Assembly: GCA_046861655.1 (NCBI GenBank)
Contig: JBHIAI010000036.1
Coordinates: 1-14,981, forward strand
Source of the DNA: Fidelibacterota bacterium
GTDB taxonomy: Bacteria > Fidelibacterota > Marinisomatia > Marinisomatales > S15-B10
Length of the DNA: 14,981 nt
Direction: 5' to 3'
Below, in pieces: positions 13-14,444 of the stretch; within the stretch, counting starts at the first letter, position 1; every line of letters begins with the position of its first letter. Below the pieces are notes generated by a model. The model did not search any database. It was not told where the DNA came from and saw only the letters and a program-made list of their open reading frames with translations. The position numbers and the translations under genes were made by a program.

Positions 13-2445
13 ATGACTGACAATGACCTGAGAATAGGGGTATTTGTCTGCGAGTGCGGCACCAACATCGCAGGGTCACTGGATTGCGATGAAGTCACAG
101 GATTTTCGTCCACGCTTCCCGATGTGGCCTTTGCCGTGAAGAACAGATACACCTGTTCAGAACCGGGTCAGGAAGAGATCAAGAAGGCCATCAAGGAGCA
201 CGATCTTAACCGTGTTGTTGTGGCCTCGTGCACCCCTCGGATGCACGAACCGACGTTCCGACAATGTGTCTCCGAGGCAGGGCTCAATCCCTACCTCATG
301 GACATGGCCAACATACGGGAGCACTGCAGCTGGGTTCATCTGGACGACTGGGACGGTGCCACCCAAAAGGCAAAGGATATCGTGAAGGCGGCGGTGGCAA
401 GGGCAAGATACCTTAAACCCCAGGTTGAAACGGAGGTCCCAGTTGTGAAGGACGTGCTGGTTATCGGGGGCGGGGTGGCCGGTATCCAGGCCTCCCTTGA
501 TCTCGCCGATGCAGGGTATCAGGTCCATCTGGTAGAAAAGGAGGCGTCCCTCGGTGGGATCATGGCCACCCTGGATAAGACCTTTCCCACCATGGACTGT
601 TCCATATGAATACTCGGACCGAAGATGATGGATGTCGGTCGACATCCCCGAATCAACCTGCTGACCTACAGTGAAGTAGAGGATATCTCAGGACATATCG
701 GCAACTTCCACGCCACCGTACGGAAGAAGGCCAAGTATGTGGACGAAGACGAATGCAATGCTTGCGGTGAATGCGAAATCGTGTGTCCGGTAGCGGTTCC
801 CGATGAATTCCAGCAGGGATTTTCATCCCGGAAGGCAATCTATATGCCCTTTCCCCAGGCCGTCCCCTCCAGTTTCATCCTGAACATGAACGACTGTCTG
901 GGACAGAATCCCATCGCCTGCGGGAAATGTGCGGATGTGTGTGACAAGGACTGCATCGATTTCGACATGAAAGACGAGATCGTCAAGCTGGATGCCGGGG
1001 CCATCATCGTGGCCACTGGAATGGACGTATACGATCCCACCGAACTGGACGAATATGGCTACACGCGCTTCGAGAATGTCATCACAAGCATGGAATTCGA
1101 AAGATTGATTTCCGCAGGGGGTCCCACGGAAGGTCACTTCATTCGACCCACGGACAGAAAGACTCCAGAGCGAATGGCATTTATTCAGTGCGTGGGGTCC
1201 CGTTCCTTGAGTGGGAGGGGTAACCCTTACTGCAGCACTATTTGCTGCATGAATACCATAAAGGACAGCCTGCTCATCAAGGACCATCATCCTGACACGG
1301 ACATCAAGGTTTTCTACATAGACATCCGGGCATACGGAAAGGGATTTGAGGACCTGTACCGAAGGAGTAAGCAACTGGGGGTTGAGTATATCAGAGGGCT
1401 GCCCGGTGAGGTTTTTGAAGATCCTGACACAAGGAACATCACGTTGGCAGTTGAAGATTCGGCCACGGGAACGGTGGAAGATTACGAATTCGACATGGTG
1501 GTCCTGGCCGTTGGTGTAATCCCCCGGAAGGACAGCGAGGTCATCAGAAATCTACTTTCCCTTTCCCGTTCTGAGGATGGGTTTTTCATGGAAGCTCACC
1601 CCAAACTCAAGCCCGTGGAGGCGCCCACCGGTGGTATCTATTTCGCCGGTGCGGTGGAGTCCCCCAAGGATGTCAAGGAAAGTGTCACCCAGGCCAGCGC
1701 GGCATCTTCCCGGGCGCAGATTCTTCTGAACGCCGGCCAGATCCGTATTGAGGCCATCACGTCCGAATGTCTGACCGACCTCTGCACAGGGTGCAACGTC
1801 TGTGTCAAGGTATGTCCGTTCAATGCCATCATAGAGGGCGATGCCAAAGCCAGGATCCCGGTGGAAATGATTGAAGCCGCCTGTCAGGGGTGCGGGACCT
1901 GCGCTGCCGAGTGCAATTTTGACGCTATCCTCATGCGGCACTTCGAGGACGCCCAGATTATTGCCCAGATTGATGCCATTACAGAGGACTATCCCATGGA
2001 AAAGATCGTGGTATTCGCTTGCAACTGGTGCTCCTATGCCGGTGCGGACCTGGCGGGTCTTTCCAGGATGCAGGTTCCCCGGTCTCAACGGATCATCCGG
2101 ACTATGTGCAGCGGCCGGGTCGATTCCAGGTTCGTCCTGTACGCCTTTGAAAGAGGAGCACCCATCGTTCTGGTATCCGGCTGCCACTTCGCGGACTGCC
2201 ACTATATCGATGCGAACAGGTGGACCCAGAAACGGGTGGACAAGCTGTGGGACAAACTGGAAAACATGGGCATCCGGCCTGAGCGACTCCAGCTGGAATG
2301 GATCAGTGCGGCCGAAAGCGGTAAGTGGGTCCAAACCATGGTCGATCTGGAGGAGATGCGGAAACAGGTTTCGGCAGAGGAAGTGGAATTTACGCGAAAG
2401 GTCTTGAGGGTTCATAAGCGCAGGATTCCAGCCCTATCCTCCTGA
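13..2445 (+). CDS. hdrA: Heterodisulfide reductase subunit A (HdrA)-MvhD fusion flavoprotein, 810 aa, with probable selenocysteine at codon 199 (TGA 607-609)
   Basis: ORFs 13..609 and 625..2445 share a frame and join as TFPTMDCSI-[TGA]-ILGPKMMDVGRHP, matching the HdrA motif FPTxDCxxCILxPKM. N-terminal motifs CECG, CSEPG, ASCTPRMHE, NIREHCSWVH. FAD motif GGGVAG. Ferredoxin motifs CNACGECEIVCP, CTGCNVCVKVCP, CQGCGTCAAEC. Also FIQCVGSR and YCSTICC. From ~1996 an MvhD-like domain (FACNWCSYAGAD, MCSGRVD, SGCHFADCHY, WISAAE). RBS AGGAG at 2-6. Confidence 0.93.
610..651 (+). promoter_or_regulatory. Putative bacterial SECIS element directly downstream of the in-frame UGA
   Basis: Perfect 7-bp stem GGATGTC (630-636) / GACATCC (641-647) with a GGTC loop (637-640) starting 27 nt after the UGA. 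Possible lower pairing TCGG (614-617) / CCGA (648-651). A G at the start of the loop and this spacing fit the bacterial SECIS model. Confidence 0.72.
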
Positions 2446-2470: not shown

Positions 2471-2626
2471 ATGGACGAAGTGGATTTCAGATGTTTGCGA
2501 TGCGGGCACGAGTTCAGGGGACCGTATGACAGGAAGATCCCCATGGAACGGACATGCCCCAGATGTTCAAGCAACAGTGTGAGAAAAACCGGTAAGACTT
2601 CCAGGAAACCGGAGGAGAAATCATGA
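2471..2626 (+). CDS. Small zinc-ribbon / rubredoxin-like protein, 51 aa (FmdB-like), absent from the ORF track
   Basis: Manual translation: MDEVDFRCLRCGHEFRGPYDRKIPMERTCPRCSSNSVRKTGKTSRKPEEKS*. Two CxxC knuckles (CLRCGHEF, CPRCSS). RBS GAGGA at 2458-2462. Its stop overlaps the next start (ATGA 2623-2626). Confidence 0.85.
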   Translation: MDEVDFRCLRCGHEFRGPYDRKIPMERTCPRCSSNSVRKTGKTSRKPEEKS

Positions 2627-3204
2627 AGAGGGAAAAGAGCGATTTTTTCCGGGCCTTCGTTAGGGTAAGCAAAGCCATCAGTTCAACACTTGAACTGAAA
2701 GAGGTTCTCCATCTGATCCTGGAGAGTGCCGTGGAAAGACTGGGTCTAAAGGCGGGCGCCGTCAGCCTGTGGAACAAACCGACGAATCGACTCGAAATGA
2801 TCGCTCATCTGAACCTTAGCCAGGAGTTTCTGAACAAGGGACCCGTGTACGCGGACAGGAGCATGCCCCGGGCCCTCACCGCGAAAAAACCGGTTATCAT
2901 CCCCAATATTGAACACGATGACCAACTGCAATATCCAGAAGCCTGCAGAAAAGAAGGAATCCAGGCACTCCTTTCCATACCCATCATTTTCAAGGATGAT
3001 GTCATCGGTGTCCTCCGGCTATTCGACTCCCGGATTCGCCAGTTCACAGGGGAAGAAGTTGAGTTCATGGTGGCCCTGGCTGAGCAGGGGGGAGTCGCCA
3101 TCAAGAATGCCCTCATCATGGACCAATTGAAAAAGGATCATCAGCGGGAGATGGATGATTTGTGGGACTGGTTTAGCGACATGGTGGAAACGCCCCGGTA
3201 CTGA
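2623..3204 (+). CDS. Stand-alone GAF domain protein, 193 aa
   Basis: GAF hallmarks: ISSTLELKEVLHLILESA, EGIQALLSIPI..KDDVIGVLRL, FTGEEVEFMVALAEQGGVAIKNA. Strong RBS GGAGGAG at 2611-2617. No kinase, cyclase or HTH domain follows. Confidence 0.88.
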   Translation: MKREKSDFFRAFVRVSKAISSTLELKEVLHLILESAVERLGLKAGAVSLWNKPTNRLEMIAHLNLSQEFLNKGPVYADRSMPRALTAKKPVIIPNIEHDDQLQYPEACRKEGIQALLSIPIIFKDDVIGVLRLFDSRIRQFTGEEVEFMVALAEQGGVAIKNALIMDQLKKDHQREMDDLWDWFSDMVETPRY

Positions 3205-5344: not shown

Positions 5345-6076
5345 CTACCGGTAGGGAGACTTCTGAACAAGCTCCCTGGCCCTTTCCAGATCTTCCAGGA
5401 AGTCAATCTCTATGCTGGGCAGGTCCGAAATGTCCACGTAGGAGACGTTTGATGTGGCGAGAAGAGGATGGACGGCGGCTTCAAAATAATCCGCCTTTCC
5501 CCCGGCTTCCACGAGATCGGTCAACGATTGGGACAGTTTCCCGTTGAAGGATCGGGAGAACTTCGCCACTCCGATGAATTCTCCCAGTGAATTCTCTTGA
5601 ATCAATTCCTTGCCGATAGCCACAATCCTGTCCCCGTCCCCGGCAATGACTTTCACCTCCTCCCGACCGCACGGTTTCGGTTCCACCGCCAGAACATTGC
5701 TGGCGGGAGAATGAAGTACCCTTTGTATCAGGGACTCCGGGAACAGGACATCGGCGTTCATCAGAAGAATATCCGATTCACGAATGGTCTCGCGGCAAAG
5801 ATAGAGGGAATACGCCGTATTGGTCTCGAAGAAGTGATCATTGGTGATCACGGAAAATGTCATTTCGGGAAAGCTGTGTTCCGCATGGGCCACCACCATC
5901 TCGCGGAAGTATCCTACGACCAGGACAACATGAGAAACACCCAGGGACTGGAGGGCCTCAAGCTGGTAGTCAATGATGGGTTTTTCTCCTACTTCCAGAA
6001 GGCATTTGGGCCTGTCGTACGTAAGGGGATACAGCCTGCGGGCCACTCCCGCGGCCAGGATAACCGCCACCATCAT
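5345..6076 (-). CDS. Phosphocholine/phosphonate cytidylyltransferase-like nucleotidyltransferase (LicC/PntC-like), 243 aa
   Basis: AVILAAGVARRL.PLT..PKCLL, VVGY, TNTAYSLY, LMNADV, EEVKV, GEFIGV, EIDF.EDL.RA. The start overlaps the upstream stop (ATGA 6073-6076). Confidence 0.8.
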   Translation of the reverse strand: MMVAVILAAGVARRLYPLTYDRPKCLLEVGEKPIIDYQLEALQSLGVSHVVLVVGYFREMVVAHAEHSFPEMTFSVITNDHFFETNTAYSLYLCRETIRESDILLMNADVLFPESLIQRVLHSPASNVLAVEPKPCGREEVKVIAGDGDRIVAIGKELIQENSLGEFIGVAKFSRSFNGKLSQSLTDLVEAGGKADYFEAAVHPLLATSNVSYVDISDLPSIEIDFLEDLERARELVQKSPYR

Positions 6077-7179
6077 GCTGCCTTTCTCCCGGATTCCCGG
6101 AGCCTGGTCTCGACGGTATCCACAAGCCGGCTGGATGCCCTTCCGTCGATTCTATAAAGATATCTGTCCCGGGCCACACGTCTGGCCTCTTCAAGATTGT
6201 GGGGATCCTCCAGTGCTTCTTCCGTCACTCGTACCAGATCCTCAGGACGGGCGAGAGGATGGGTGAAATCAACCTCCCGGGCCCGGAGAGAATCCAGTTT
6301 TTTTGCCAGCCGGGATGGGAACAATCGATGCTTCAATTTGAGGGAGAAGAAATGAGTCTGAATGATGGGCCGGTTCAGGGCTAGATACTCGAACAACGTG
6401 GAAGAAATGTCTGAAATCAGAGCATCGGACGCCACATAAAAAGGAAGTATGTTGTACTCCTCTTTCGGAAGAAGACAGATGCCCGCGTTCCCCCGGGCCA
6501 CATTCTCGGCCTTCCTGCTTTGATGCTCAAACCGGTGCTTAAACCAGCTAAAGTTATGGAGCTTGATTATCACGTTCGCCTTTCTGGCCAGAACTGGCAG
6601 GAAGGGCAAGACTTTTTCCAGGGACGAAGGATAGAAAGTGGGAGCGTACAGGACCGTTCTCCTGGATGGATCGAGTCCCCAGTCCTCCAGGTTGGGACCG
6701 GGATGACTCTTCATCAAGCGGGAAATGGGATCCAGTTTCGTAAAGCCCACCAGGGCCAGATTATCGGCGCCCTGGACTTTCAAATCCCGGAACCTGGACT
6801 CACTTTCTACCGCCCGGATATCGACCCGGGGGACCGTATCCCTGTAGTAACTCCATTTCAGTCCAATCCCGTGGTAGATCATGACCGTTACGGCCGGGTC
6901 AGTAGCAATATCTTCCAGCTTTCCGACGTTGCCCACCACGATCACGTCAAAGCCTCGATCCCGGAGCCGCGTCACCCGGTCGTCTTCCGAACCGGCAGTA
7001 ATAAACTCGACCTGGAGGTTGGCTGACGCTTTCTCAAGGAGGACCTGTTCCCACGGATCCACCGTCGTGGGCATGGACAGGGAAACGGCGTACCCACCCC
7101 GGTTCTTGAGTTCTTCAATCACCGGCCTGAACTGGGGAAGGTAGTAGAGGTGCTGCGTTTCAAAAAGAACGGTGATCAC
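6073..7179 (-). CDS. CDP-glycerol glycerophosphotransferase (TagB/TagF-like) family protein, 368 aa; start revised to GTG 7179
   Basis: Motifs IYHGIGLK, GFTKLD, LYAPTF, KLH, ISDISS..FEY..L.RP. GTG 7179-7177 overlaps the upstream stop (GTGA). The N-terminus VITVLFETQHLYYLPQF aligns with the paralog start PITVVFDAYHLYHLPQF. Confidence 0.85.
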   Translation of the reverse strand: MITVLFETQHLYYLPQFRPVIEELKNRGGYAVSLSMPTTVDPWEQVLLEKASANLQVEFITAGSEDDRVTRLRDRGFDVIVVGNVGKLEDIATDPAVTVMIYHGIGLKWSYYRDTVPRVDIRAVESESRFRDLKVQGADNLALVGFTKLDPISRLMKSHPGPNLEDWGLDPSRRTVLYAPTFYPSSLEKVLPFLPVLARKANVIIKLHNFSWFKHRFEHQSRKAENVARGNAGICLLPKEEYNILPFYVASDALISDISSTLFEYLALNRPIIQTHFFSLKLKHRLFPSRLAKKLDSLRAREVDFTHPLARPEDLVRVTEEALEDPHNLEEARRVARDRYLYRIDGRASSRLVDTVETRLRESGRKAA

Positions 7180-8222
7180 GGCCTCAGCCCCATCATCCGG
7201 CGAACCTTCCACTTTCGCACCAGGTTCAACGGCTTTTTCTTCAGTTTCAGGTGGAGACCGTTCTGCAGCACGTTCTCGATGGATTCCAGTACTCTTCGGG
7301 ATGAATTCCCATCCCTGTAGGGATGGATTTGGTCCAGGATCCGTCTGCGGTTTTCTTTCCATTTTTCCGGCGCTTTCAGAGATTCTTCAATGGCTGCCGG
7401 GAGGTCGTCTGGTTCCAGGATATTGGTACCCTTGTCCAGGTGAGCTCCTGCCCGGTAGGTCACCACGGGACGGTCCAGCATCAGGAATTCGTAGGCGACC
7501 GAAGAAGTGTCGGTGATGAGTAGATCCGCCGCCCTTAGGAGGGGCAGGACGTCCTGGGCGGTGGCGACACGAAGGGTCCCAGACTCGAGCTCTGTGTAGT
7601 CCTTCACCGTACGAGGATTCGCCAGAGCGTGAAACTTGACCACCCACTGATAGGATCCTGAGGCAAGGGACCTGATAACGGGAAAAAGATCGGGTGCGGA
7701 GGTATACGCTGGCCTGAAGTTGGGGGCATAAAGAATCACCGGTAATCCGGGAGTCAGTCCGAGTTCCTTGAGTATGGCCTCCCGTTTCTTCGGTTTCACA
7801 AGAGGGTCGAGTTTCGGCCACCCGGTTTGAGCCACCATGAAATGACCGGATTTTCCGGCCAGCCCCACGTACCGCCGGGTTATCCTGGGCCCGGGCGTAC
7901 AGTACAGGTCGAAGAAGCCGGTCACGCGGTAGTATCCCTTTTTCTCTTCACTCAAGCTATGGAACAGGTGTACTTTGACTCCGGGCCAGGTGTGAGGAAC
8001 CACATTCCCCGGAACCAGGATCGCGTCCGGACGAAACTTATCTACCTCTTCCGGGTTCTCCAGGGACTCTCCGGGGGGATTATGGTCCCGGGCGGTGCTG
8101 GCCGTGAACCACCGGACCTCTCCCCGGGTCTGTTCCCGCACGAACTTTTCCACCGGTTCCAGAATCGGGAAGGAGTATGGCCTGGTGACGAACATCAGAT
8201 AACGGCGGGACGGAAACTTCAC
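7176..8222 (-). CDS. CDP-glycerol glycerophosphotransferase (TagB/TagF-like) family protein, 348 aa
   Basis: Motifs VHLFHS, TGWPKLD, LYAPNF, KFH, ADLLITDTSSVAYEF..LDRP, DGNSSRRV. The GTG start directly follows the upstream stop. Confidence 0.85.
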   Translation of the reverse strand: MKFPSRRYLMFVTRPYSFPILEPVEKFVREQTRGEVRWFTASTARDHNPPGESLENPEEVDKFRPDAILVPGNVVPHTWPGVKVHLFHSLSEEKKGYYRVTGFFDLYCTPGPRITRRYVGLAGKSGHFMVAQTGWPKLDPLVKPKKREAILKELGLTPGLPVILYAPNFRPAYTSAPDLFPVIRSLASGSYQWVVKFHALANPRTVKDYTELESGTLRVATAQDVLPLLRAADLLITDTSSVAYEFLMLDRPVVTYRAGAHLDKGTNILEPDDLPAAIEESLKAPEKWKENRRRILDQIHPYRDGNSSRRVLESIENVLQNGLHLKLKKKPLNLVRKWKVRRMMGLRP

Positions 8223-9344
8223 TCAGCCCACCCGGTCCAGCAAGTGGTCTCGGATTCGTTCGGACGCTTTCCCATCCAGTTTGAAAAGCATATCCTTCTT
8301 GTAGGCGTCCCGTTTTCCCTCCGCGGGGAGGCTCTGACTCAGGCTGGAATCCACCGAATCTTTCAGATCATCGGGGTGCTCGAGCCGGGTGCAGAATTCA
8401 GTCACCTCCCTTTCCATTTTCTCACTCAATCGTTTTCTGTACAGCCGGCGGCGAAACAGGCGATGGGAGACTCGCAAACGGTGAAATCGACACAGAATCA
8501 CCGGTTTGTCCAGTGCCATCATTTCAAAGATGGTGGAAGAGGCCTCGGTGATCAGGAGATCGGCAGCCCCGTACAAGGGGACAATGTTGTAGAATTCTGG
8601 AGGCAGGACACGAACGTGGGAAAATCGTCTCTCTGCCTCCTCGACGATCCGTCTCTGGTGTTTCAAGCTTAGCCCCCCGAACTTTTTTCGAAAGTAGACC
8701 CAGGTGTGCAATTTGATGATGAGGTTGAAATCCTGGGTATTCTCTGCCAGCTTCATGCCAAAGGGTTCCACCGAACTCGGATAGAACGTCGGTGCGTAAA
8801 CGATGGTCCTTTTTGTTGAATCCAGGTCGAGTTTGGCCAGAACCGACGGCGGGCTTTCCGTCCGGCCGTTGAAAAGAGGGTCGAGCTTGGCGAAACCGGT
8901 CACTTCCAGGTCCGTTTCGATCCCCTTCTCCCTCAGCTGACGTTTTCGGTAAGGTCCCTCCACGAACCGAAGATCCAGACGGGGATGATTGTCCAGCCAG
9001 TAGGAGGGTTTCACTCCAATTCCATGGTACGCCATCCCCACCAGGGTGGAATCAGGCACAAACGTCTCGAGGGGATACCGGGACCATCCGCAGATGAATA
9101 CCTGGGGCTTCAGGGCCCGAATCTTCCGGGCCCTTTCCGATTCATTCTCAGCGGTTATCACCGGACTTTCCCGGTGGCTGAGGATTCGCTGCACCAGCCG
9201 TTGTTCTTCAGGAAGGTTTGCCGAGGAGGTGGTCAGAAACACGCCGAAACGGTCATCAGATTCAAGCAGATCGATGACAGGATCAAACTGAGGAAGGTGA
9301 TACAGATGGTATGCGTCGAAGACGACAGTAATGGGCGAACTCAT
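8223..9344 (-). CDS. CDP-glycerol glycerophosphotransferase (TagB/TagF-like) family protein, 373 aa
   Basis: Motifs YHGIGVK, TGFAKLD, YAPTF, KLH, ADLLITEASS.IFE..ALDKP, DGKASERI. Clear paralog of 6073..7179. Confidence 0.87.
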   Translation of the reverse strand: MSSPITVVFDAYHLYHLPQFDPVIDLLESDDRFGVFLTTSSANLPEEQRLVQRILSHRESPVITAENESERARKIRALKPQVFICGWSRYPLETFVPDSTLVGMAYHGIGVKPSYWLDNHPRLDLRFVEGPYRKRQLREKGIETDLEVTGFAKLDPLFNGRTESPPSVLAKLDLDSTKRTIVYAPTFYPSSVEPFGMKLAENTQDFNLIIKLHTWVYFRKKFGGLSLKHQRRIVEEAERRFSHVRVLPPEFYNIVPLYGAADLLITEASSTIFEMMALDKPVILCRFHRLRVSHRLFRRRLYRKRLSEKMEREVTEFCTRLEHPDDLKDSVDSSLSQSLPAEGKRDAYKKDMLFKLDGKASERIRDHLLDRVG

Positions 9345-9345
9345 A

Positions 9346-10368
9346 CTACACGAGAAGCGAATCTACGGCATCCTTAACGTCGCTGAAGGTCACCTGTCGA
9401 AGGCATTTGTATTCATAGGGGCACCTCCGAAAACAGTCAGGTCGTCGGCAGGACATTTCTTTGGACAGTGCCACCCGGCGGGAATTCCTTCCGTCGTTCC
9501 AGGTTTCAGCCTTTCCCGGTCCGAAAATCGTGATCGTGGGCACCTTTGCTGCCGTGGCCAGATACTGAATGCCTCCGTTATTCCCGATGTGAAGCGTCGA
9601 CCGGCTCAAAACATGAGCCAGAACCTTCAGCCTGTCAAACTCGATGGCAGCATCGGCCTCATACCTCATAAGACGGCCGACACTTTCCAGGAAATGAGAC
9701 TCTCCTGGGCCACCCACCAAAACAACCTTTTTTCTCCGTTCTCCAATCAAGTAATCAGCGACCCTCGCGTAATCCTCAGAAGGCCACAGTTTCCACCTCC
9801 GCAAACTTACAGGAGCAACAGTTACGAATCCATCCTCCGGGACGATCCCATTGTCAGCAAGTAAATCGTCTCCCTTCTTTCTGGAGGGATCATCGACGAA
9901 AATGTCCAGGTCTGTCCCGTCCGTTTCATCCGCGAGCTCCCTGGCCACTGACAGACGCTCGTCCGCGATGTAGCCGGAAGATTCCCTGGATGAAGGGAGG
10001 GAGCGGTTGTAAGCCCATTTCCGGATCCTCCGGTCGGGACCGAACCGGATCGGTGCACCGCTGAAAAGACTGATTAGGGCACTTCTGGGATTGGCAAGGA
10101 CATCCACGGTCACATCGAAGTCCATCCTGGCCAGCCTGAAGGTCTTGCCCATGAACGCGAACGGGGAATCTTCCGGGTCCAGGGTGAACACACGGTCAAC
10201 GTATGGATTGCCCACCAGGACTTCCTCATATCCCCCGTCGACGACCGCGGTGATCTCGCCCCGGGGATAGGCCTTTTTGAGGGCACGAATCAGGGGGGTA
10301 GTCACCAGGATTTCCCCCACTCTCTTGACAACAAGAATCAAAATCCGGAAGGGATCCTGCCGTATCAT
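9346..10368 (-). CDS. Glycosyltransferase family 9 (LPS heptosyltransferase-like), 340 aa, with atypical catalytic motifs
   Basis: RILI....VGEILVTTPLIRALKKAYP, NPYVD, WKLWP...Y..V, GGPGE, VPTITIFGP and a Cys-rich tail (CRRPDCFRRCP..KC) typical of WaaF-like proteins. Confidence 0.85.
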   Translation of the reverse strand: MIRQDPFRILILVVKRVGEILVTTPLIRALKKAYPRGEITAVVDGGYEEVLVGNPYVDRVFTLDPEDSPFAFMGKTFRLARMDFDVTVDVLANPRSALISLFSGAPIRFGPDRRIRKWAYNRSLPSSRESSGYIADERLSVARELADETDGTDLDIFVDDPSRKKGDDLLADNGIVPEDGFVTVAPVSLRRWKLWPSEDYARVADYLIGERRKKVVLVGGPGESHFLESVGRLMRYEADAAIEFDRLKVLAHVLSRSTLHIGNNGGIQYLATAAKVPTITIFGPGKAETWNDGRNSRRVALSKEMSCRRPDCFRRCPYEYKCLRQVTFSDVKDAVDSLLV

Positions 10369-10383
10369 GAATCTGTTCCGGAC

Positions 10384-11415
10384 CTATTTTTCGAAGGCCT
10401 GGAGAATCGAGTCCACGATCCGGTTGGCGGCCTTTCCATCTCCGAACGGATTCTCGCCATCCCACCGCGGATCATCGTTCGCCCACGAAAAATTCTTTTC
10501 GATTTCAGTCCCCACCACCCGGGCGAGTCCCGCCTCCACACCTTCGGGTCTTTCCGTTTTATCCCGGCAGACCAGCACTCTTTTCCGGTATGCGGCACAC
10601 TCCTCCTGAATGCCCCCGGAGTCGGTGATGACGAACTTTGCCTCACTCAGAAGGCGGAGGAATTCCCGGTATTCCAGCGGTTTCACCACCGCCGTTTTCT
10701 GGAGAAGATTCCGGTGCCGCTGGACTTCGGGATTGGGGTGCATGGGAAACACGAACTCAAGTTCAGGATACGTTCGGGCCAGGTTCTCAATCTGTTGAAA
10801 CATGGATTCCATTCGTTCCCCAAAATTCTCCCGGCGATGGAGAGTGATGACCACTTTCGTGCCGTACCGGACCGGGAAGCCGGATTCAAGGCACACATCC
10901 ACCACCGTGTTTCCGGTGAGAATCGCATTGTCCACTCCCTCCCGGATCAGGTTTTCCAGAGCCCGCTGGGTCGGGGCCCAATGGATGTGGGCGACCCTGG
11001 AGATGATCTGACGGTTGACCTCCTCCGGAAAAGGGGCCCCGGGGTCGTAGGTTCTCAGACCTGCCTCTATGTGGCCCACTTTCGCCTTCTCATAGAATGA
11101 AACCAGTGCCACAGCCATGGCTGTGACGGTGTCCCCCTGAACGATGACAATGTCGGGAGCGGCCTCCTGAACGAGAGGCCTGAATCTGGCCGCCACCTGG
11201 GCCAGGACCCGGGCCGGGGACTGGTTTTCTTCCATGATCTCCAGGTTGAAATCCGGTGCCGGAATCAGTGCCTGAACGTAGTGAAAAAGTTCGTGGTGTT
11301 GACCCGTAAGAACGGAGGTGAAAGAAATCTTCCGCCGGGACAGTTCGGACAGGGTCGAGGCCACCTTGATAACTTCGGGACGGGTCCCAAAGCACACCAT
11401 CACCCTGGGCTTCAT
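10384..11415 (-). CDS. wecB: UDP-N-acetylglucosamine 2-epimerase (non-hydrolysing), 343 aa
   Basis: GTRPE.IK, TGQH, QGDT, HIEAGLRT, PFPEE.NR, GNT..D, TLHRREN, TDSGGIQEE, TERPE, NPFGDG. Confidence 0.95.
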   Translation of the reverse strand: MKPRVMVCFGTRPEVIKVASTLSELSRRKISFTSVLTGQHHELFHYVQALIPAPDFNLEIMEENQSPARVLAQVAARFRPLVQEAAPDIVIVQGDTVTAMAVALVSFYEKAKVGHIEAGLRTYDPGAPFPEEVNRQIISRVAHIHWAPTQRALENLIREGVDNAILTGNTVVDVCLESGFPVRYGTKVVITLHRRENFGERMESMFQQIENLARTYPELEFVFPMHPNPEVQRHRNLLQKTAVVKPLEYREFLRLLSEAKFVITDSGGIQEECAAYRKRVLVCRDKTERPEGVEAGLARVVGTEIEKNFSWANDDPRWDGENPFGDGKAANRIVDSILQAFEK

Positions 11416-11433
11416 GGAATCCTCTCACGCAGA

Positions 11434-13284
11434 TCAAGCACGGGAGGCCAACACTCGGGCATTCGGTCCGAACTGAGCTTCGTACAGTCTTCCGTAGTAC
11501 CCGTTCCTTTTCAAGAGCTCTTCGTGCGTGCCTGACTCCACAATCCGGCCCTCCTTCAATACGATGATCCGGTCCGCGTTCAGAACGGTGGAAAGGCGGT
11601 GGGCAATAACAAACACGGTCCGGGCCCACATGAGCCTGTCGATGGCTTCCTGAACCTTTTTCTCCGATTCTGTGTCCAGGGAGGAGGTGGCCTCATCCAG
11701 GATGAGTATGGGGGGATTCTTGAGTAGGGACCGGGCGATGGCGATACGCTGACGCTGACCCCCTGAAAGCATGACGCCCCTTTCGCCAATCACGGTTTCG
11801 AATCCCTCGGGCTGGTCCTCAATGAACTCGAGAGCGTTGGCTGCCATTGCCGCCTCACGAATCCTCTCCGCATCCGTATCCAGCTCCCCGTAGGAAATAT
11901 TGCTCTCAATGGTGTCGTTGAACAGGATGGTCTCCTGGGGCACGATGCCCATCAGCTGCCTCAGCGACTTCAACCGGATGTTCCGGACGTCCACACCATC
12001 CAGGGTAACTGCACCATCATTCACATCATAGAACCGTGGAATGAGATCGGCGACGGTCGACTTGCCCGCACCGCTTTCCCCCACCACCGCAACCACATCC
12101 CCCTTCTTGATCTCAAAGGAAATGTTCTTGAGAACCTTTTCATTCCCTCCATCATAGGAAAAGGAGACATTTTCGAACCGGATGGATTCTTTGAACTCAG
12201 AGACTTCCAGGGCGTCTTCCGCTTCCACGATTGTTCTGGGTGCGTCCAGGACGGAAAACACCCGTTCGGCCGAAGCCATGGCCGATTGAATATCCTGGGC
12301 CACCGTGTTGAGACCTTTGATGGGATTCAGAATCGCAAAGAGCAGCAGAATAAACCGAATGAAATCTTCCGGATCCATGGTCTGGTGAAGAAGGACCTCC
12401 GAACCCCCGATCCACAGCAGGATCACCCCCATGGTTACACCCATGATTTCAGTCACCGGCGTGGAAGCATACCGGAGACCAAACTGCCGCCGTAACAATC
12501 GATAGTGCCGGGCCGTTTCCCTCCTGAATCGTCTCCGCTCCACCCGTTCGGTTACGAACGCCTTGACGATCCGGATACCGCTCAGGGTCTCCTGAAGGAT
12601 GGACACGATCCCGGAAATCTGTTTCGATGAGCGCATGGCCTTCCGGCGAAGGCTCCTTCCCACGAAGGTGATGAGAACAGCAGCCACGGGAAGAATCAGC
12701 CCGGCGGCAAGGGTCAATTTCCAGTTGATGAGGAATAACAAGATCGCAAACGTAAGGATGTTGATGGGCTCCACGAACAGTTTGTGAAAGCTGACCGACA
12801 GGGACCGTCGAATTGCGTTGACGTCATGCAGAACAATGGATGTCAGTTCACCGGAACGAGTTCGGTCGAAAAAGGAAAGGGACAATCCTGTCAGATGATC
12901 GAATATCTTGTTCCTCATATCCCGGATGACATGAAACTGGACGATTCCCATCAGGACATTCTTGATGTACAGGAAAAAATTCTTCAGGAAAAAGATGAGA
13001 AAGATGACCGTGCACAGGGCCTTCAGGGTGTCTATGGGTGTGTCTTTCAGGACCAGTAGATTGGTCCACATTTTCAACGTTTCATTGGCGGATCTGACCG
13101 TGGATGTTTCCAGGGCCAGCTGGTTTTCTACCACGGTCTGAAAATCGGTCAGGATGTTGTTGATCAGGGATGCCGTCACCCACACGGAAAGGGAATTGAA
13201 AAAGACGTACACAACCGAAGCAATCACCGAGAAGATGACGAAATGCCAGTAGGGCTTAACCAGTTTCAACACCCGGGTGTACAT
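11434..13284 (-). CDS. msbA: MsbA-like ABC exporter (fused TMD and NBD), 616 aa
   Basis: N-terminal transmembrane helices. Walker A GESGAGKS, Q-loop IVPQE, signature LSGGQRQR, Walker B ILILDEATS, H-loop IAHRLS. It sits in an LPS/surface-glycan operon. The lipid A substrate is inferred, not shown. Confidence 0.85.
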   Translation of the reverse strand: MYTRVLKLVKPYWHFVIFSVIASVVYVFFNSLSVWVTASLINNILTDFQTVVENQLALETSTVRSANETLKMWTNLLVLKDTPIDTLKALCTVIFLIFFLKNFFLYIKNVLMGIVQFHVIRDMRNKIFDHLTGLSLSFFDRTRSGELTSIVLHDVNAIRRSLSVSFHKLFVEPINILTFAILLFLINWKLTLAAGLILPVAAVLITFVGRSLRRKAMRSSKQISGIVSILQETLSGIRIVKAFVTERVERRRFRRETARHYRLLRRQFGLRYASTPVTEIMGVTMGVILLWIGGSEVLLHQTMDPEDFIRFILLLFAILNPIKGLNTVAQDIQSAMASAERVFSVLDAPRTIVEAEDALEVSEFKESIRFENVSFSYDGGNEKVLKNISFEIKKGDVVAVVGESGAGKSTVADLIPRFYDVNDGAVTLDGVDVRNIRLKSLRQLMGIVPQETILFNDTIESNISYGELDTDAERIREAAMAANALEFIEDQPEGFETVIGERGVMLSGGQRQRIAIARSLLKNPPILILDEATSSLDTESEKKVQEAIDRLMWARTVFVIAHRLSTVLNADRIIVLKEGRIVESGTHEELLKRNGYYGRLYEAQFGPNARVLASRA

Positions 13285-13925: not shown

Positions 13926-14078
13926 AACAAAAAAAGGGTTGACGGGTTCCTCAGATTGGACAAACTATGTTCTGTCAGGACCGTCACGTTCACAGAACTT
14001 GCAACCAGATCGCACAAGACCAACGTTGATAAATGTATTACTCTAAAAGGAAGAATTCATTATTTTTGCTCTGGAGAG

Positions 14079-14444
14079 ATGAAAATCGGAAAAAGGCGCA
14101 TCATCGTAGTGGGAGACAGGCTTCTCATCCGGCCGGATGAAGCCTCGGAAAAGAGTCCGGCCGGTCTCTATCTTCCGCCCACAGTTCGCGAAAAAGAAGA
14201 CGTCTGGGGTGGCGTGGTGGTGGAAGTGGGTCCGGGTATTCCCCTATCGGAACCTTCCAACGTTGAGGAAGAACCCTGGAGGACCGACACGGAAAACATA
14301 AAGTACATTCCCACCCAGGCCGAGACGGGGGATTACGCCCTTTTTCTAAAGAAAGCGGCTGTGGAGATCAACTTCGAGAGCAAAAAGTTCCTTATCGTCC
14401 CCCAGGCCGCCATCCTGGTCCTGGTCAGAGAAGAAATCGGCTGA
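14079..14444 (+). CDS. Co-chaperonin GroES family protein (divergent orphan), 121 aa; start revised to ATG 14079
   Basis: VGDRLLIRP, mobile-loop-like EKSPAGLYLP, GVVVEVGPG, GD..LF, and a C-terminal I.F....FLIV....IL pattern. GGAG at 14073-14076 (short spacing). The extension from 13956 is AT-rich and not GroES-like. Confidence 0.82.
   Translation: MKIGKRRIIVVGDRLLIRPDEASEKSPAGLYLPPTVREKEDVWGGVVVEVGPGIPLSEPSNVEEEPWRTDTENIKYIPTQAETGDYALFLKKAAVEINFESKKFLIVPQAAILVLVREEIG

Follow-up and report, generated by a model that had tools for sequence, protein, structure and literature searches.

A predicted selenocysteine-containing HdrA-MvhD fusion protein of Marinisomatota, annotated as two open reading frames, and its probable operon context

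Closest described systems

HdrA proteins carrying selenocysteine (Sec) have been described in Methanococcales and in bacteria. In M. maripaludis HdrA the residue is Sec197, which according to the accessible part of PMC13518236 may belong to a selenylsulfide relay linking FAD to the A3 cluster; section 10 of the same paper calls the role of the HdrA Cys-Sec motif unresolved. For Deltaproteobacteria and Clostridia, 16 bacterial HdrA selenoproteins are given in the accessible text of PMC1794560. The initial annotation of the locus had named Sec-HdrA from Methanococcales and from some anaerobic bacteria.

Fusions of HdrA with MvhD are found in non-methanogens, and HdrB2C2 is the partner of HdrA2 in M. 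acetivorans (both from the available portion of PMC5296606). Another relative is BamDEFGHI of class II benzoyl-CoA reductase, in which, as far as the accessible text goes, a HydABC-like input feeds electrons into a fused HdrA dimer, one half of which is non-bifurcating, and BamD hands electrons on to ETF (bioRxiv 10.64898/2026.04.10.717634). Genes for hdrABC have been noted in Black Sea MAGs including a Marinimicrobia bin (PMC8359207), and amino-acid degradation by Marinisomatota has been reported (PMC7382037), each source being available in part. Our literature search, whose coverage was incomplete, found no paper on Sec-HdrA in Marinisomatota.

The hdrA-mvhD gene and its probable operon

The window, i.e. 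the whole stretch of 14,981 nucleotides analysed here, begins with an hdrA-mvhD fusion gene (13..2445, + strand) whose product has 810 aa if the TGA at 607-609 is read as Sec. The product scores 1181.9 bits against NF040770 (HdrA2; cut-off 1100); a full-length HdrA with a C-terminal MvhD above this NCBIfam cut-off classes it as HdrA2. The HdrA part (13..1989, +) comprises an N-terminal Fe-S domain, an FAD/TrxR-like core and inserted and C-terminal ferredoxin domains, and read-through residues 6-659 match residues 4-652 of 5odc_A (E 6e-239). It is followed by a fused MvhD/FlpD [2Fe-2S] adaptor domain (2005..2355, +; PF02662, residues 665-781, E 1.8e-43) with Cys throughout and without a second TGA, of which residues 664-779 match the MvhD chain 5odc_D. 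In the alignment, K417 of the core falls on K409 of 5odc_A and E363 on E356, residues which we take to have a role at the bifurcating FAD site. Lys280 of BamE is a comparable lysine in the accessible text of the Bam preprint (bioRxiv 10.64898/2026.04.10.717634).

The locus resembles the Sec-HdrAs of Methanococcales and bacteria in the position of its CxxU motif (X197 of 9sfi_A). It is unlike them in that MvhD/FrhD is fused and Cys-only, that no hydrogenase genes were found, that the predicted SECIS lies in frame, as bacterial ones do, and that the host, by its nearest relatives, belongs to Marinisomatota. With the M. acetivorans HdrA2 (NF040770; PMC5296606, accessible part) it shares the domain order and a score above the family cut-off; unlike that protein it has a predicted Sec at the CxxC site, and its partner would be a single HdrD-like protein and not HdrB2C2. 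The gene is a further member of the selenoprotein family published for bacteria since 2006.

The window opens at a contig start (1..12, +) that is probably adjacent to the end of contig C36, where the upstream operon genes lie. The last 4 nt of C36 match the 4 nt with which the window begins, and the spacing obtained by joining them lies within 1 nt of that at the contiguous locus of a same-genus genome, in which hdrA'-hdrD-hdrA(U) follow one another in nearly the same arrangement. From this overlap and the synteny, hdrA(U) likely closes the operon on C36. That contig ends within a gene for an HdrD/GlpC-like protein (Fe-S dicluster plus two CCG domains) and carries before it, in order and labelled mostly from best matches under curated cut-offs, glutamate dehydrogenase, four subunits of 2-oxoacid:ferredoxin oxidoreductase, NuoF-, NuoE- and NuoG/HoxU-like proteins and a 687-aa HdrA'-MvhD. 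The HdrA' is degenerate: its CxxC segment and inserted ferredoxin domain are both missing, and so is an equivalent of K417. On the downstream side, a 51-aa zinc-ribbon gene, an unlisted ORF (2471..2626, +; PF09723 at E 1e-5, below the cut-off), overlaps the start of a gene for a stand-alone GAF-domain protein (2623-3204, +) and likely belongs to the same operon; the GAF protein, a possible regulator, also lies downstream in several Marinisomatota loci.

A wider set consisted of the 80 best among 591 stretches confirmed in a GTDB scan, and neighbours were counted only at those loci with enough flanking DNA. In these best 80 of 591 loci MvhD is fused in 70/72, an hdrD-like gene stands upstream in 44/47, kor in 34/46, and the zinc-ribbon gene is downstream in 53/65. 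A GltD-like-MvhD gene was present at 25 of 46 loci of the same best 80 of 591. The input module thus varies, a NuoF-like gene being present at only 1 of the 46 loci whose upstream flank was long enough. Several phyla share the kor...hdrD-hdrA(U)-mvhD layout, which was seen in Marinisomatota, Ignavibacteria, Zixibacteria, Calditrichota, Chloroflexota and others. No title or abstract describing a kor-hdrD-hdrA operon came up in a literature search that covered few subscription papers, and the accessible parts of PMC5736913 and PMC9012183 hold nothing on it.

The arrangement is like that of BamDEFGHI, as described in the accessible part of the preprint, in its HydABC/NuoEFG-like input, MvhD adaptor, complete and degenerate HdrA units and HdrD-like output. 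It is unlike BamDEFGHI in several respects on the same partial source: no BamB/AOR gene was found (PF02730, no match in the 92.8%-complete genome), each HdrA unit has a gene and an MvhD of its own, the Sec is in HdrA and not in the adaptor, and the HdrD-like protein has both CCG domains.

With its Sec codon, the protein might instead serve in a complex of the classical HdrABC-hydrogenase kind, or in one linked to DsrC, whose other genes would lie elsewhere. The partnership of M. acetivorans HdrA2 with HdrB2C2 (PMC5296606, accessible part) speaks for such an assignment, as do further CCG-domain genes on C112, C160 and C139 and the incompleteness of the assembly. Against it, the 92.8%-complete genome gave no match to a NiFe hydrogenase large subunit (PF00374), and neither FeFe hydrogenase nor DsrC was found in it; with no match to MvhA and an HdrD-like neighbour in place of separate HdrB and HdrC, the gene set found around hdrA is not that of HdrABC-MvhADG. 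The recurrence of hdrD-like and kor genes upstream among the best 80 of 591 loci also argues against a complex encoded elsewhere. We regard a classical complex, which concerns function and leaves the Sec reading untouched, as unlikely, and prefer a partnership with the HdrD-like protein of the operon.

Elsewhere in the window, a surface-polysaccharide cluster occupies 5345-13284 (-), with genes for a nucleotidyltransferase, three CDP-glycerol glycerophosphotransferase-like proteins, a GT9 protein, UDP-GlcNAc 2-epimerase and an ABC exporter, and a Cpn10-like gene lies at 13956-14444 (+); no groEL was seen in the window. Contigs C43 and C48 of the same genome (G000) both match elongation factors, with almost the same scores and spacing, which points to a duplicated segment or to a copy from a second strain in the bin.

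Predicted decoding of the internal TGA

The first open frame (13-609, +) encodes 198 aa and is terminated by the TGA at 607-609. The second, of 606 aa, opens in the same frame at ATG 625, five codons (ILGPK) past the TGA, and reading the TGA as Sec joins the two into a single product with the motif C196-S-I-U199 (598..609, +). Neither half-ORF is present in the exact-sequence collection. Five solved HdrAs align across the TGA without a gap, with Cys in four of them (Cys197 in 5odc_A) and X at 197 in 9sfi_A, so that residue 199 falls on Cys197/Sec197, where the initial annotation had expected C or U. The two adjacent frames are almost certainly one intact HdrA-MvhD gene, wrongly split, with an internal UGA predicted from the sequence to be decoded as Sec.

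A sequencing error had been named as one way in which this reading could fail. The TGA is also covered, without any difference, by a 546-nt contig assembled independently from a public run. This contig may represent the source sample, and the sequencing runs matching the TGA region come from one hydrothermal-vent study which may include the source; no RNA data set was among the runs listed, which bears on expression neither way. The codon is no artefact of assembly, since this contig is identical and the 12 other relatives that have the gene share the TGA. Among 41 genomes, its own and those of 40 relatives, the orthologue was found in 13, each with exactly one TGA, at the position of codon 199.

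Alternation of TGA with Cys codons, a further check that had been proposed, was found in the wider set: among the best 80 of 591 GTDB loci 69 have TGA and 11 have TGT or TGC, a spurious TGT row without the motif (L108:2738) having been removed ahead of the Cys counts. All 11 Cys records of these best 80 of 591 loci are from Chloroflexota. A tree was built after 12 short proteins and 3 duplicates had been removed from a set of 93, with 6 rows as outgroup to the remaining 78. Its deep supports are modest; ten Cys rows and one TGA member form a single clade in it with support 1.0, nested among the Sec forms. The 11 Cys copies are thus not 11 independent controls, as they are essentially one Chloroflexota clade. 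A selA match is still present in 8 of the 11 Cys-carrying genomes, and in 13 of the 14 TGA-carrying Chloroflexota tested. The TGA copy at L110:8208, with an intact hairpin, lies inside an otherwise Cys Dehalococcoidia clade and may reflect retention, reversion or transfer.

A second Sec-HdrA gene stands upstream at 14 of the best 80 of 591 loci (L069, L071, L077, L081, L082, L084, L099, L103, L105, L106, L107, L112, L128 and L133), mostly in long tandem forms. Thirteen of the 14 are about 1,000-1,470 aa long, with CxxU near the N-terminus and a similar hairpin; they recall the permuted fused HdrA dimer BamE.

The predicted bacterial SECIS (630..647, +) is a 7-bp stem with arms at 630-636 and 641-647 and a GGUC loop at 637-640; GGUC also occurs in the SECIS loop of E. 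coli fdhF. The hairpin had been placed in the initial annotation 27 nt downstream of the UGA. It is present as claimed, with the correction that 27 nt is the distance to the loop, while the stem begins after 20 nt. The bSECIS model in the accessible part of PMC13188914 allows a loop of 3-9 nt with G, a stem of 4-16 bp and a loop 16-37 nt from the UGA, ranges that include the 4-nt loop, 7 bp and 27 nt observed here.

The significance of the hairpin comes from its conservation, since as a single sequence it is not beyond chance: its z-score alone is -1.4 to -2.1, and at the genome's 12,510 TGAs that can be read through a similar strict hairpin occurs 167 times and a loose one 1,811 times. An ab initio scan of the genome for UGA plus hairpin was too noisy to give a list of the selenoproteome. 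Pairs were counted over distinct 60-mers or rows, since the sets L023-L035 and L057-L136 overlap in some genomes, and the TGA input also took in the 14 second-copy genes found upstream. All seven pairs are formed in 86 of 90 distinct TGA 60-mers, and six pairs in the other 4, vs none of the 11 Cys 60-mers with all seven. In a formal count on 86 distinct TGA rows, 99.3% of cells are paired, a value reached by 0/500 shuffles; in the 11 Cys rows 62.3% are paired, and 455/500 shuffles are as high. Pair 6 appears in the TGA rows as U-A (58), C-G (17) and U-G (10), and slid controls pair at 21-56%. Compensatory change is confined to one column pair and is tied to a Val/Ala change. Synonymous codon choice within the hairpin is fixed among TGA copies (GAT 90/90, CAT 90/90, GGT 89/90) and flanking codons vary; 7/7 pairing is possible in 128 of 1,536 synonymous codon combinations. 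The hairpin is thus kept in TGA copies and degraded in Cys copies.

The genome contains the expected machinery, with selB above cut-off and with winged-helix domains, a Sec-type selD above cut-off that has its own in-frame TGA and 9-bp hairpin, and a tRNA-Sec with UCA anticodon above the Rfam gathering score. The initial annotation, which had asked for such genes, is supported in these three. A whole selA was not found in the 92.8%-complete assembly, nor was archaeal SepSecS found. Among the 41 genomes selA is present in 37, including the same-genus one and all 12 others with the hdrA gene, and in 5 of 8 loci examined in relatives the order is transporter-like gene, selA, selB. A homologue of the transporter-like gene runs off the end of contig C89, and selB begins 52 nt into C100, the first 17 codons of which resemble the C-terminus of the same-genus SelA, with the same overlap with the selB start. 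C89 and C100 are probably neighbouring contigs, and from the gene order and the apparent 17-residue SelA tip selA most likely lies in the assembly gap between them. A weak selA match on C13 was rejected, as the 447-aa ORF reads like, and is presumably, a cysteine desulfurase of the SufS type.

Taken together, these results leave little room for the TGA as a true stop, which would make the locus a pseudogene or a natural split with a C-terminal piece starting from the in-frame ATG at 625. Split or permuted hdrA genes are on record (PMC1794560, accessible part), and the incomplete recovery of selA fits a stop as well. Yet in the best 80 of 591 loci the TGA is found in 69 and in several phyla, in a catalytic Cys column where it alternates only with TGY; the five codons from the TGA to the ATG are conserved as protein; and the hairpin persists in TGA copies but has decayed in Cys copies. 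A true stop is accordingly very improbable. Equally improbable is a UGA read as another residue, by genome-wide recoding to Trp or Gly or as Cys (which works at the site in homologues), for TGA is the terminator of 432 among 867 open frames with at least 350 aa, the hdrA gene included, as an ordinary stop would be, and the UCA-anticodon tRNA passes the tRNA-Sec cut-off.

Other in-frame TGAs were seen. In the same genome a frame of about 114 aa (G000:C155:5037, +), which we take to be DsrE-like, has one in the motif A-U-G-T-C-C and is another likely selenoprotein. NiFe hydrogenase large subunits at G033:C16:10553-11986 and G024:C7:5379-6812 have one in-frame TGA each and are likely NiFeSe enzymes of Marinisomatota.

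Proposed mechanism and significance

The hairpin would recruit SelB-tRNA-Sec, leading to insertion of Sec at codon 199; on the conserved codon, hairpin and machinery genes we hold this with high confidence as a prediction. By analogy with the M. maripaludis structure paper (PMC13518236, accessible part), C196 and U199 may then serve as a selenylsulfide relay next to the bifurcating FAD. Gene order points to the upstream HdrD-like subunit as the partner replacing HdrBC, and to an NAD(P)H input made up of NuoEFG-like proteins and the degenerate HdrA'-MvhD here and of GltD-like-MvhD in many relatives. Such an assembly would balance the pools of ferredoxin (2-oxoacid oxidation) and NAD(P)H (glutamate dehydrogenase) under anoxia, and electrons would leave at HdrD to a putative acceptor, a disulfide or ETF. 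We moderately favour this assembly with the HdrD-like subunit and NAD(P)H input, its balancing role and its putative acceptor. The genome has matches to heme-copper oxidase subunit I, so strict anaerobiosis is not implied.

More tentatively, the protein may lie at the centre of a bifurcating complex that is widespread and works without a hydrogenase, with the order korDABG, MvhD-fused exchangeable NAD(P)H input, HdrD, Sec-HdrA-MvhD and zinc ribbon. In this organism it could be a BamDEFGHI-like double-bifurcation machine without BamBC, with a heterodimer of HdrA(U) and non-bifurcating HdrA' and with 2-oxoacid:ferredoxin oxidoreductase replacing the ring-reducing module. We consider this extended scheme possible and somewhat doubtful.

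The single 810-aa HdrA selenoprotein put forward in the initial annotation is borne out by the frame, the alignment, the conservation of TGA and hairpin, and the presence of selB, selD and tRNA-Sec; the fused MvhD and the larger kor-nuoEFG-hdrA'-hdrD operon had escaped that annotation. A split annotation is thereby repaired, and Sec-HdrA is extended to Marinisomatota. Room for novelty lies only in the conserved kor-hdrD-hdrA operon. For the family, close Sec and Cys forms of one bacterial protein offer a natural pair with which to address the role of the Cys-Sec motif.
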